From a virus (taxonomy: Duplodnaviria; Caudoviricetes): a stretch of 27,019 bases of DNA. A program made the position numbers and the translations under genes. How positions within the stretch are numbered: position 1 is the stretch's first letter; each line of letters starts with the position of its first letter. The notes under the pieces were generated by a model. That model did no database searches. It saw only the letters and a list, made by a program, of their open reading frames with translations, and was not told the DNA's origin. The stretch spans positions 1 to 27,019 of IMG/VR virus record IMGVR_UViG_3300012667_000014, one strand, 5' to 3'. Below are positions 10,396 through 25,522 of this stretch, piece after piece.

Positions 10396-10968
10396 TTATT
10401 CTTTCTGAACGTACGATTTTCCAGCAAGAAGCGTTTTGATTGATGGCAAGCTGATTTCGTAGTCAATAGCAAGTTGCCTTGCAGAAACCCCATTCCGTCT
10501 TTTTTCACGAATCTCTGTTGCTTGTTCCATTGTAAGTTTGCAACGTGGCCCTTTGCCACCAGAAAAGTCTGGCGAACGACCTTTTGCAGCTTTATCAGCC
10601 ATGTTGTCAGCATGAGTTCCAACAAACAAATGACTTGGATTGCAACAGCATGGATTGTCGCACTTATGCAACAAAAATCCAGTTTCTTCTGTACTTGCTG
10701 GCGCACGCCATTCAATGACATTTGGAAATGCCAAAGAATATATAACTCTATGCGCGTAGTAAGAATAGTCATTTATTTGAACTCTGCCGTATCCATTTTT
10801 TAACAAACCTTTCCAAGGCCAACATTCATTTTCACTACGTTTATCAACTTTGCTCCACAAAACCTCAGGTGTATTTGCTGGCCTTCCAGCTTTTCCAAAC
10901 ACAAAACCTTCTTTTTTCTTTTTGTGATATTCGCGTTGATAATGTCTTTGCTTTTCGAGTTTGTCCAT
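10396..10968 (-). mobile_element. Free-standing HNH homing endonuclease
   Basis: CWPWKG...GYG...YAHRVIY...LHKCDNPCCCNPSHLFVGTHADNMAD HNH core plus C-terminal HTH (KLTMEQATEIR...[10 protein letters not shown]). Start reassigned to ATG 10968, preceded by AAGGAG. Confidence 0.9.
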
Positions 10969-10995
10969 GACTGCTCCTTTTAAAAGAGCAATCAT
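10967..10995 (-). promoter_or_regulatory. Hairpin sequestering the SD and start codon of the HNH gene
   Basis: Minus strand AUGAUUGCUC-UUUUAAAAG-GAGCAGUCAU(G): 10-bp stem with one U.G pair whose 3' arm includes GAG of the SD and AU of the AUG. Confidence 0.75.
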
Positions 10996-22247: not shown

Positions 22248-23531
22248 TTAGCCCATCCAGCTATTTGCGCCACCGTAATTTTGCACTGGTCGAGCCTGTC
22301 TTCGTTGTTTTGGTTCGTTAATCATCAAACCAATGTAGCGGAACGCGTCAGCGCCGTGGCTGTAATTGTCATGCACTGGCGTTTTGCTAAATTGCTTGGT
22401 GTCTGGGTCAACATCGTAACGGTAATGTCGCAAGCATTGCAATCCATCGTGGCAATTGTCACGGTCAAACCAGCAGTTTCTGAAGATTGTTCGGGCAGCG
22501 TTGATACTGTCCAAAATAGGCGTTCTTGGGATGATGCGGGTTTTGTAGCCAGCAGCCCTGACAATTTCTTCAATGCTGCGACCATTGCCTGCCAAAGTCT
22601 TGTTCTCAGCGTCATGCGGTAGCCACAGCGTGTCATAGATATATCCAAAGGTCTGCATCTTGGCTAAATAGTCGCTCATGGTCTGCTGATTGCCTTCCAT
22701 GTACCGAATCAAGCGGGTTTCCATACCCACAAACTGCAAGAACCAAATAGCCGTAGCGTCAGACCAACCCAAGTCAAAGATGGCGTGAACAGGCTTTGTG
22801 GGGTCATAGTTGACCTTGGTGATACGCCCATCCAACTCAGCCACTTGCATTTCACGGGCAAACACAGCGCCATCAACTGTCTGACGGCACAAACCTTCCC
22901 AGACAACGTTATAGGCTTGCGGGTCACGAGCTTTTAGCTGGTCCTTCTCAAGTCTGAGCGTTTCAGGAAACCAAGGGTTATCCGACCAGTTAATCTTGAC
23001 CACGATACAGTCATCAGGCGGGTGAAGCACAAACCGCTGATAAGTTTCGTCACTTTCCAACTCGGGGTTAAACGTAATCCAAATCTCTGAGCCAGGCTTG
23101 CGAATGGTTGGGATAAGCACGTTCCAGCTTAAACGGCTGGTTGTCTGCGCTTCTTCAACCCAACAAATGTCCACACCTTCGTAAGATTTGACGTTTGCCA
23201 CGTTGTTCTTGAGGCCAACAAAGCTGAATTCTGAGCCGTTTTTGCCACGGATGCTGGTTTGGGTGATTTCGTAGAACGAACCTAACCCTAGGGATTCAAT
23301 CTGGTCGCACAGCAGCTTGTGAACCGAATCTTTGATAGAAGTCTGAAACTCACGGGCGCAAAGGATGCGCAGCTGGTTCTTGGCGGCTTTAATCAGCAAC
23401 GCCCTAGCAACACCCCATGACTTAGCGCCACCGCGACCACCGTACAAAACTTTGTAGCGTGACTTCTCAAACAAGCATTGGAGCTTGATTGGAAACTCAG
23501 CATTAGCAATGGCGGTGTTGACTTCTGACAT
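22248..23531 (-). CDS. terL: Terminase large subunit (PBSX-type)
   Basis: Walker A YGGRGGAKS, Walker B WVEEAQ, TFNP, nuclease DLGWSD and SHGADAFRY. Confidence 0.95.
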   Translation of the reverse strand: MSEVNTAIANAEFPIKLQCLFEKSRYKVLYGGRGGAKSWGVARALLIKAAKNQLRILCAREFQTSIKDSVHKLLCDQIESLGLGSFYEITQTSIRGKNGSEFSFVGLKNNVANVKSYEGVDICWVEEAQTTSRLSWNVLIPTIRKPGSEIWITFNPELESDETYQRFVLHPPDDCIVVKINWSDNPWFPETLRLEKDQLKARDPQAYNVVWEGLCRQTVDGAVFAREMQVAELDGRITKVNYDPTKPVHAIFDLGWSDATAIWFLQFVGMETRLIRYMEGNQQTMSDYLAKMQTFGYIYDTLWLPHDAENKTLAGNGRSIEEIVRAAGYKTRIIPRTPILDSINAARTIFRNCWFDRDNCHDGLQCLRHYRYDVDPDTKQFSKTPVHDNYSHGADAFRYIGLMINEPKQRRQARPVQNYGGANSWMG

Positions 23532-23546
23532 TTGTTCCTTTTAAGT

Positions 23547-23712
23547 TGTTGGTGTCGGAGTAGCCATCTCCGAGGTGGGATTATCCAAGTTTCCCAACCC
23601 TCTTGACAGGGTAATGGCGGCTAACCATTGAAACACCAACACGACTGAGGACTGCTATGCACTCATAGGGGCTTGCGCCTTGCTGAGTCTGGGTACGGCA
23701 ATCCTCATGCGT
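23547..23712 (-). ncRNA. Unassigned highly structured RNA: long GNRA-capped stem plus five-way junction with complementary loops
   Basis: Stems read by hand: UGAGGAUUGC/GCAGUCCUCA, ACUCA/UGAGU, GGC-GCAA-GCC, GUUGGUG/CACCAAC, AAUGG/CCAUU, ACCCU/AGGGU, UGGGA/UCCCA, UCGGAG/CUCCGA. G.U pairs favour the minus strand. Confidence 0.7.
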
Positions 23713-23714
23713 TT

Positions 23715-23790
23715 TGGCTCCTCAAGGTGGGGTCGAACCACCGACACACGGATTAACAGTCCGTTGCTCTGCCAACTGAGCTATTGAGGA
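23715..23790 (-). tRNA. tRNA-Asn (GTT) with encoded CCA
   Basis: TCCTCAA TA GCTC AGTTGGCA GAGC A ACGGA CTGTTAA TCCGT GTGTC GGTGG TTCGACC CCACC TTGAGGA G CCA: canonical 76-nt cloverleaf. Confidence 0.97.
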
Positions 23791-23791
23791 A

Positions 23792-24205
23792 TTATTCTTC
23801 TTGCGGTTTCACAAACGTCACGTTAATACCAGAAAGCAAAGGCGCTCCATCAGCACCCGTGATCTCAGTCTTCGTGCTTTCACGGTACTTCTTAGGGAAT
23901 CGTGCAGCCATAGAACGCGACCAAAGGCCAGTGTTCAACTTAGCTGCATCCTTGTGTTCCAGCATATAGGATTGTGCTTGGTCTTCCCACCATGCAAGCT
24001 CTAATTCCTTCGCCAATTCCAAGGCGTGCTGAAATTCCTCATGAGTATCACGCCATGAGAACAAAGTTCTAGTTCCAACACCAATTATTGCGCCTATTTG
24101 CTCAACAGATTTACCAATGCGCCCCAATGCAATGACTTCATCGCACATAGCGGGGTCATACAATGTTGGTCTACCTACGGGGCGTTTTTCGGTTGTTTCT
24201 GTCAT
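23792..24205 (-). CDS. terS: Terminase small subunit
   Basis: GRPTLYDP start, HTH (GKSVEQIGAIIGVGTRTLFSW), EITGADGAPL tail; upstream of terL. Confidence 0.8.
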   Translation of the reverse strand: MTETTEKRPVGRPTLYDPAMCDEVIALGRIGKSVEQIGAIIGVGTRTLFSWRDTHEEFQHALELAKELELAWWEDQAQSYMLEHKDAAKLNTGLWSRSMAARFPKKYRESTKTEITGADGAPLLSGINVTFVKPQEE

Positions 24206-24484: not shown

Positions 24485-24674
24485 TGGTTTCCCCAAAATA
24501 AGCCAACAGGTCAATGTCTTCGTTAAGGTTCTTAAAACGCTCCTCAAACGAATACAGAATGCCTTTATACAGGCTGACATAGTAGCGGTTGCCGTTCTTT
24601 TTGTAGAACTCCAACTGCTTCTTGGCTATGCCGTAAGCCAGCGCCAGCGTGTAAATGTTCTCTTTGACTATCAT
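24471..24674 (-). CDS. Hypothetical protein (67 aa)
   Basis: ATGA overlap with the GroES-like gene; Tyr/Lys-rich. Confidence 0.55.
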   Translation of the reverse strand: MIVKENIYTLALAYGIAKKQLEFYKKNGNRYYVSLYKGILYSFEERFKNLNEDIDLLAYFGETNAQA

Positions 24675-24955
24675 TCTTCAACAAAACAAATGTCTTGCCA
24701 GCTCATTTTCAAGCATTGGTCTTCACCTAGCTTCAATGGCTCAAACTTCAAATATTCGTCTTTGGCTGTGTTCGCTACCGTACCAAAGTGGACTTTATCG
24801 CCCATCTTTAGCCCCTGGCGCATAGCATCGTCACCCAAGGCGACAACGTGGCCTGTCGTTGGGTAGCCTTCTACCTTGCTCAAGTCCAGCACTTCAGACT
24901 TGAAACGTTGTTCAGGTTTGACAATGATTTTGTCTCGCAATGGCTTGATGTTCAT
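24671..24955 (-). CDS. groES: GroES/Cpn10-like co-chaperonin
   Basis: MNIKPLRDKIIVK...GHVVALG...LKMGDKVHF...MSWQDICFVE aligns by eye with E. coli GroES MNIRPLHDRVIVK...GEVLAVG...VKVGDIVIF...MSESDILAIVE. Confidence 0.82.
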   Translation of the reverse strand: MNIKPLRDKIIVKPEQRFKSEVLDLSKVEGYPTTGHVVALGDDAMRQGLKMGDKVHFGTVANTAKDEYLKFEPLKLGEDQCLKMSWQDICFVEE

Positions 24956-25493: not shown

Positions 25494-25522
25494 ACTTTAT
25501 GCCGTTGGTGGCACAATGTCAA
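25494..25522 (-). promoter_or_regulatory. Near-consensus sigma70 promoter heading the packaging/structural region
   Basis: TTGACA (25522-25517), 17-bp spacer, TAAAGT (25499-25494). Confidence 0.7.

Follow-up and report, generated by a model that had tools for sequence, protein, structure and literature searches.

The stretch of DNA analysed here, hereafter the window, covers 27,019 nucleotides of a 27-kb linear record of a freshwater phage; the record is ~78% complete and has a P22-like head module. On the minus strand of the window, terS, a tRNA-Asn gene, an element of 166 nt and terL follow one another in this order, and the element, as delimited in the first-pass annotation, starts 2 nt past the CCA end of the tRNA. 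The genes and candidate expression signals were as follows.

25494..25522, minus strand: sigma70-like promoter candidate, ~1.3 kb upstream of terS (10/12 match)
23792..24205, minus strand: terS, terminase small subunit, 137 aa (PHROG 309, E 3.5e-17)
23715..23790, minus strand: tRNA-Asn(GTT), CCA encoded (ARAGORN; Rfam RF00005, 66 bits)
23536..23540, minus strand: Shine-Dalgarno-like AAGGA of terL, outside both conformers described below (sequence; folds)
22248..23531, minus strand: terL, PBSX-family terminase large subunit, 427 aa (TIGR01547, 155 bits; PHROG 3717)

The promoter candidate is a possible source of the precursor transcript; it is a weak one, as 8 sigma70-like sites were found in the window against 5.2 expected. 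Also on the minus strand, a GroES-like co-chaperonin gene was found upstream of terS (24671-24955; PHROG 3188, E 7e-5), and an HNH endonuclease gene, likely a mobile homing endonuclease, within the head-completion module (10396-10995).

Fold and strand of the element

All helices named in the first-pass annotation were present in the minus-strand minimum-energy fold of 23712-23547 (−63.9 kcal/mol), and the element folded far better than shuffled controls (z −4.42; 0/200 shuffles as stable), bearing out the earlier description of a structured RNA. Folded alone, domain 1 had a z of −4.16 and domain 2 a z of −2.72, with 2/200 shuffles as stable as the latter. The parts of the fold were assigned as follows.

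23641..23712, minus strand: domain 1, a constant stalk around a variable cargo, predicted RNase III substrate (159 distinct units; covariation; box match)
23664..23685, minus strand: conserved cargo core of domain 1, with a 4x4 internal loop, a 3-bp stem and a GNRA tetraloop (70 IMG/VR stretches; 23 distinct contexts including the window)
23547..23641, minus strand: domain 2, a five-way cloverleaf with an 8-9-bp acceptor-like stem stacked on a 5-bp T-like stem (fold; homolog L424; contigs from sequencing runs)

It had also been claimed that the structure belongs to the transcribed strand. As the plus strand of the element is likewise stable when folded (z −3.28), the window by itself says little about the strand, but the claim stands on the pattern in the family of related units described below. 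A U.G wobble was kept at one stalk position in 129/159 units, and A.C mismatches were nearly absent from the stalks, with 2/159 at each of two R:Y positions and, when one unit per cargo family was counted, none in 98 at two R:Y positions.

Rfam returned no family for the element at the gathering score or at E≤10, including the ribozyme and riboswitch models, in agreement with the first reading, which had not recognised it. A known ribozyme was rejected on the lack of any Rfam match to the element at E≤10, tRNA-linked theta ribozymes being compared by eye. In the window and 59 related-locus entries, Rfam found only tRNAs, one unrelated abiF match and sub-threshold matches.

Three features had been missed. 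The stalk runs 5 pairs further (tRNA GCCA-A with UUGGU), in competition with the closing stem of domain 2; domain 2 contains two loop-loop complementarities; and the element belongs to a repeat family. Separately, the acceptor strands of tRNA-Asn (23784-23790 / 23719-23725; UCCUCAA/UUGAGGA) closely resemble the upper stalk strands of domain 1 (23699-23707 / 23647-23655). Cross-pairing between them is possible, and the resemblance may be chance, since the tRNA at locus L015 differs.

A modular family of phage RNA units

Related inserts follow a common pattern, in which ACGCAUG-RRGAYU and RRUCYYCAG-YCGU flank a first variable region and, directly after these, GUUGG and CCAAC flank another. A scan of IMG/VR with this pattern gave at least 120 stretches, and the total was estimated at ~1,400 from 6/64 parts. 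The GTDB scan gave 19 stretches, six of them in Burkholderiales-labelled or Polynucleobacter, Undibacterium and Ramlibacter records; several of the 19 look like chance matches and were kept in the unit counts. Units that look true were seen in cultured Burkholderiales, namely Undibacterium sp. SXout7W (L296), Polynucleobacter sp. UK-Kesae-W10 (L297) and Ramlibacter sp. AN1015 (L288).

With one mismatch allowed per anchor, 173 units were defined. They carry 109 families of domain 1 cargo, and the 111 units closed by a helix of at least 6 bp ending in CAAC carry 81 families of domain 2. Families of the two domains were freely combined: of the domain-1 families with several members, 18/19 were joined to at least two domain-2 families, and 16/19 domain-2 families with several members were joined to at least two domain-1 families. 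Two or three units stand in tandem at 26/143 oriented loci, and each of the window's two cargoes was also seen with different partners. Rather than a one-off terL leader, the element is a single unit within a modular family of phage RNAs, and its two domains are separable modules. The expectation of a single discrete RNA of ~165 nt was not borne out, as the domains recur separately.

In GenBank phages, BLASTN with the element plus its tRNA found an unannotated unit in MW202484; the element alone gave chance matches only, and the array at L114 gave no match. Shortly downstream of the cassette at five loci (L164, L176, L181, L225, L235), we observed a gene of PHROG 28018, a family of unknown function, and a Dps-like small gene adjoins at PHROG 28018 loci (PHROG 858 in L223 and L224).

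Covariation of domain 1 and reuse of its cargo core

The stalk of domain 1 consists of ACG/CGU, a 2x2 loop and a 9-10-bp upper stem, ~20 bp in all. Across nine close homologs, 97.9% of pairs were kept and 7 pairs had changed on both sides, and none of 500 shuffles reached the pairing or covariation score, relatedness being ignored in this comparison. The 22-nt cargo core was found mostly between tRNA-Glu and tRNA-Leu, or after tRNA-Glu, in a different short closing stem (6-9 bp), and a covariance model built from freshwater units matched these tRNA-bounded cores at E 5e-8 to 5e-6. A further cargo scan returned only an already known contig. The other frame, seen at L430:379-448, L468, L489 and ~55 similar IMG/VR contigs, is ~65 nt long and lies directly 3' of tRNA-Glu, usually before tRNA-Leu; it has a purine-rich 5' arm and no Rfam match.

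Alternatively, the cassettes might be DNA modules that are selfish or nearly neutral; recombination at the constant repeats would spread them, and their compact folding would make them tolerable. Their patchy presence and free shuffling would fit this, as would contigs from sequencing runs in which both arms of the stalk are retained and enclose different inserts of 70 and 117 nt and, weakly, a single contig from run X3 that joins tRNA-Asn to the terL leader without a cassette, with only 29 nt on one side. However, compensatory changes occur within the cargo, wobble pairs fall on one strand only, units share the strand of neighbouring tRNAs (15 to 0), and one cargo core is reused in a different frame. 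These observations point to selection on RNA, and we consider the selfish-module explanation quite improbable.

The terS-terL junction

To compare related packaging regions, we fetched 80 loci each by terS and by terL homology and cut out the junctions. Among 96 distinct terS-terL junctions, the genes overlap without an insert in 76; the other 20 have a gap of more than 50 nt, and 17 of these carry the opening motif. In 4 of the 17 scaffold-bearing junctions (L045, L053, L096, L107), the stalk is shortened to 9 bp and lacks the distal box of RNase III sites discussed below; these shortened hairpins have a 4-5-nt loop and no cargo, and keep a conserved domain 2 with complementary loops. Other contents were also seen by eye in the terS-terL slot, including tRNAs alone or a tRNA with an endonuclease-like ORF (L001:1905-2554, L025:1916-2084). 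At L128 the slot holds a methyltransferase-like ORF, which suggests an insertion hot spot.

The genes downstream were taken from 76 motif-selected loci. These gave 73 downstream ORFs, and the 63 left after 10 spurious-looking opposite-strand ORFs had been dropped were scanned. Terminases made up 28/63 (17 terL and 11 terS), all on the same strand and from several families.

Two roles had been put forward for the element, a phage ncRNA of the packaging module and a cis element controlling terL. The former held in that the element is structured, Rfam-negative and biased towards packaging regions (28/63), but not as a dedicated packaging RNA. The latter was not supported, given the absence of the insert from 76/96 junctions and the same domain 2 standing before an unrelated gene in L424. 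The absence from 76/96 junctions argues against a packaging RNA or a terL switch alike. A translational switch for terL was rejected, as the Shine-Dalgarno region was unpaired in both predicted conformers (folds to 23541, 23540 and 23500) and domain 2 also precedes an unrelated gene; the domain 1 cargo, moreover, recurs in other settings, one of them between tRNA-Glu and tRNA-Leu.

A more general cis explanation is that the structure only stabilises or tunes the terS/terL message and that the cargo has no role in trans. The terminases of several families among the downstream ORFs and an ATG ORF within 60 nt of 35/111 domain-2 units would agree with this, and a closed 5' cloverleaf could shield an mRNA. 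We nevertheless think it improbable, because the insert is missing from most related junctions, the cargo is conserved as families and shuffled, units form tandem arrays with 21/111 domain-2 units having another unit or a tRNA next downstream, the cargo core stands alone between tRNAs, and the ribosome site is not sequestered in the predicted folds.

The packaging-motor RNA of phi29, pRNA, multimerises via loop-loop pairs. The position of the element at terminase genes, and complementary loops that could pair between molecules, are reminiscent of it. However, most close relatives with 70-95% identical terminases have no insert at all, so that the conservation in close relatives seen for phi29-type pRNA is lacking. 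The cargo also differs between near-identical terL genes, and the same domain 2 precedes an unrelated gene. A packaging-motor role was accordingly rejected and is in our view very improbable.

Domain 2 is a cloverleaf with predicted kissing loops

Within domain 2, the loop of the first hairpin complements that of the fourth, and the loop of the second complements that of the third.

23561..23623, minus strand: predicted kissing pair 1, loop 23623-23618 with loop 23566-23561, 6 bp, D-loop/T-loop-like (sequence)
23585..23606, minus strand: predicted kissing pair 2, loop 23606-23602 with loop 23589-23585, 5 bp (sequence)

Both kisses together arose in 0.2% of 20,000 loop shuffles. A full-length homolog, L424:261-353, stands behind another cargo and before an unrelated gene, and differs from the window's domain 2 at six sites: one compensatory pair and one wobble, both in the first hairpin, two loop changes and one broken terminal pair. 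Covariation over these two full sequences was insignificant (263/500 shuffles). The domain was also found behind four further cargoes in contigs from three studies; runs X2, X3 and X10 gave contigs with it, and run X5 gave nothing. In kissing pair 1, G.U becomes A-U in L424, X2, X3 and X10, a change that also fits a nested U-G pair; in kissing pair 2, U.G becomes C-G in L424 and X3. The commonest sibling domain-2 family has a similar complement between first and last loops (17 copies by pattern, 3 with a mismatch), with an A-U variant in L005 and L242.

Searches for further copies of the window's domain 2 gave little. An IMG/VR pattern scan (52/64 parts) returned at least 120 stretches, none with the upstream stalk, a second IMG/VR pattern scan gave 0 matches, and a metagenome scan gave 2, of which L424 is real and L425 is chance. 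A double-kissing cloverleaf of the kind predicted here appears to be undescribed in the literature searched.

Domain 2 was rejected as a tRNA gene, as it has no ARAGORN or Rfam call, non-canonical loops and no CCA. Canonical tRNA T-loops were found by pattern in 7/108 domain-2 cargoes. The domain-2 cargoes of L269, L225, L206, L244 and L211 are tRNA-like, with recognisable D and/or T arms and enlarged or odd anticodon or D regions; ARAGORN did not call them.

A strand with two predicted partners, in the stalk and in domain 2

Folding prediction gives GUUGG two partners, namely the CCA end of the tRNA and then the 3' strand of domain 2.

23713..23718, minus strand: tRNA GCCA end plus 2 nt, the upstream partner of the shared GUUGGU in the early conformer (pairing probability; covariation)

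In 159 units the stalk extends by 5-6 pairs into an upstream RCCAAC. Where the strand departs from consensus (29 units), the upstream partner changes with it, giving 110 pairs against a permutation mean of 68 (0/2000). We then folded the growing transcript. For ends from 23634 to 23556 the predicted upstream pairing was ~1.0, and once the 3' strand of domain 2 was made, pairing of the domain-2 stem reached 0.77-0.94. When 40 more bases were included, ViennaRNA preferred another fold, in which the upstream pairing returned (0.97). The two conformers, folded under constraint, had energies of −60.0 and −64.3 kcal/mol, 4.3 kcal/mol apart in a model of pseudoknot-free folds. Such a predicted hand-off of a strand appears to be undescribed in the literature searched.

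Predicted RNase III processing of the stalk

The helix of the early conformer is a 21-step ladder with a 2x2 loop and one mismatch, which matches the ~20-22-bp length of RNase III substrates, whose helices may be interrupted. In the text of PMC1540722 the proximal box is GC, AU/UA, AU, AU/UA and the distal box UA, UG, and according to PMC3867540 the distal-box ends are separated by 22 bp. From these two texts we deduced the register, with U.G at +9 and U-A at +10; an alternative register one pair further out gave no box match. Real RNase III sites seldom match the consensus according to PMC5371410, so a box match is a soft criterion, and PMC3074117 describes the distal-box sequence as unimportant in Aquifex.

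In the register used, U.G stands at +9 in 129/159 and U-A at +10 in 148/159 units (82/98 and 93/98 with one unit per cargo family), the 3' letters at these two positions being free in the search pattern while +1 to +4, +7 and +8 were fixed by it. The stalk has U-A at +3 and G-C at +4, so that positions 1 and 2 of the proximal box fit; positions 3 and 4 are mismatched (+2 A.G, +1 C.Y) and are not the inhibitory GC/CG, these columns being pattern-fixed. At +7 is a G-C, which lowers reactivity in a model substrate, and the boxes are not matched in the lower half of the stalk. When pair order and orientation were shuffled, an E. coli-type box match arose in 0.8% of cases for the window and 0.05% for the late-leader stalk of lambda. 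The predicted cuts are as follows.

23709..23710, minus strand: predicted RNase III cut, 5' strand, 23710 / 23709 (from the box register)
23641..23642, minus strand: predicted RNase III cut, 3' strand, 23642 / 23641 (from the geometry of a 2-nt 3' overhang)

No RNase III gene was found in the 27-kb record. On balance, we consider it probable that the element is a unit of a modular cassette whose stalk is cut by host RNase III, releasing swappable small structured RNAs. The data show the family, its covariation and shuffling, its optional presence and the box match; transcription, cleavage, folding order and a function of the cargo are inferred.

Punctuation of the tRNA type was weighed against this. 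RNase P would cut at the first base of domain 2, 3'-trimming nucleases would free the domain-1 hairpin, and the stalk would bind a protein or aid folding. A downstream helix of at least 6 bp ending in CAAC, found in 111/173 units, speaks for this, and T-arm-like geometry occurs in 32/108 domain-2 cargoes against 6.6±2.4 in shuffles, about half of these coming from one family. Shortened stalks still keep domain 2, and where the cargo core lies between two tRNAs, its closing stem is only 6-9 bp long. On the other hand, the window's domain 2 has neither a CCA nor a canonical T-loop, and an ARAGORN tRNA lies within 500 nt of only 15/173 units, directly upstream in 2, many flanks being short. RNase P punctuation would also leave unexplained the U.G and U-A of the distal box and the covariation of the outer stem in units without a consensus domain 2. 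We therefore regard it as unlikely and favour RNase III.

With RNase III as the nuclease, the stalk would first close to ~20 bp during transcription, using bases lent by the CCA end of the tRNA and by the start of domain 2. Cleavage at 23710 / 23709 would leave 5 nt of trailer on the tRNA, and together with cleavage at 23642 / 23641 it would release a hairpin RNA of 68 nt and set the 5' end of domain 2 at the U that pairs with A23547. Domain 2, once its 3' strand was made, would retake GUUGG and form a compact tRNA-like body with two kissing-loop pairings. In arrays, the cut in the next stalk would free domain 2, and every domain would be released; the window's domain 2 belongs to the last unit and may remain attached to the terL message and protect its 5' end. 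For the released RNAs, the likeliest role would be in trans, as structural mimics or decoys and not as antisense guides; this is the least supported step of the scheme.

Possible roles of the cargo

The cargoes are folded, conserved as families and interchangeable, some have canonical tRNA arms, and no antisense target was found, the longest perfect complement within the window being 11 nt, as in shuffles, in a record that is ~78% complete. We therefore favour structural mimics or decoys over antisense guides, at modest odds. The arrays of enterobacterial phages include a tmRNA-tag-like piece (Rfam tmRNA matches below threshold). In Klebsiella phage KP591P1 (L420:1200-1330) and Salmonella phage STGO-35-1 (L422:1215-1300), a tmRNA-tag-like frame without a tRNA-like domain was seen upstream of a stalk cassette; it follows a sigma70-like promoter and runs antisense to structural genes.

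A wider picture can be offered tentatively, as a possibility that we rather doubt. The cassettes may be RNA morons of tailed phages. Recombination at the constant RNase III stalk would shuffle a stock of hundreds of small folded RNAs, produced in bulk as late transcription begins. Resembling host translation RNAs (as tRNA-like bodies locked by kissing loops or as pieces like the tmRNA tag), they would serve as mimics or decoys directed at RNA-binding proteins or host defence nucleases, and the strand hand-off would time the cleavage. Should the proposed cassette scheme hold, late operons of phages ranging from freshwater types to relatives of lambda would begin with a large unannotated class of small-RNA genes whose processing follows a predictable rule, one that could be tested directly with lambda in E. 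coli K-12. The scheme would also assign a role to the non-tRNA RNAs long known from tRNA clusters of phages, and nature would supply models of a compact fold with two kissing-loop pairs and of a processing site whose timing is set by strand displacement. Because the frame is constant, the cargoes can be listed easily, and a small sample already held 109 and 81 families.

Comparison with known systems

The C4 RNAs of P1 and P7, CI of P4 and IsrK of Gifsy-1 are small phage RNAs with a tRNA-like multi-stem fold that host nucleases cut from longer transcripts. The form proposed for the window element resembles them in being small, tRNA-like, multi-stem and excised by a host nuclease. However, these RNAs sit in immunity regions and the element in a late operon, and no Rfam match was found at any locus tested.

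RNAs C and D of the T4 tRNA cluster are stable non-tRNA RNAs co-transcribed with phage tRNAs. ROOL and GOLLD (Weinberg 2017, PMC5737381) are likewise non-tRNA RNAs found with phage tRNAs, in other systems. The element has no sequence match to any of these, differs in its constant frame and interchangeable cargo, and is much smaller than ROOL and GOLLD.

Tandem arrays of variable inserts between constant repeats are also seen in CRISPR, in TIGR-Tas and, according to bioRxiv 10.64898/2026.09.22.753630, in UG27 ncRNA arrays. Unlike spacers, however, the cassette inserts are folded and conserved as families. PHROGs identified no linked effector or reverse transcriptase among the 26 ORFs of the window, an incomplete record, or the 63 downstream ORFs. 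A CRISPR-like guide array was rejected on both grounds.

Six candidate structured RNAs upstream of similar terminases, two of them environmental and 48-49 nt long, are listed in Fremin 2023 (PMC10690425), and the alignments of that study may include parts of the present family. Otherwise, in a literature search whose coverage left out most subscription papers, no description of the cassette family was found. The principle of the processing is established; what appears to be undescribed in the literature searched is that it frames small RNAs which are shuffled.

Among RNase III sites, the stems of T7 R1.1 and the rRNA operons, as given in PMC1540722, PMC3867540 and PMC3074117, resemble the window's stalk in length, in the weak pair at the predicted cut, in proximal positions 1-2 and in the UA/UG distal box. 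Those stems separate mRNAs or rRNAs, whereas the stalk here has variable small RNAs inside it and a strand in common with the cloverleaf that follows.

The late-leader stalk of lambda (NC_001416, about 44,786-44,862) fits the boxes at +2, +3, +4, +9 and +10. The title of Daniels et al. 1988 (PMID 2849240; cited in PMC7547250) reports RNase III processing sites in the lambda late transcript. Like the window's stalk, that of lambda is ~20 bp long and lies near the head of the late operon, and the two share the pairs from +8 to +11 (A-U, U.G, U-A, G-C) and the G-C at +4. They differ in the lower stem, and the 2x2 loop, the more than 100 cargo families and the arrays belong to the family described here. 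A sibling domain-2 family, which also follows the freshwater stalk, reaches enterobacterial phages, with short matches in 121 records; in three of these phages it stands directly behind a lambda-type stalk with a near-perfect box set, next to tRNAs. A covariance model of the window's domain 1 matched no lambda-type stalk at E≤1, so common descent is not shown, and the likeness may be convergence on the preference of the enzyme. The Undibacterium record carries three units, two of which have a stalk intermediate in sequence between the freshwater and lambda types.
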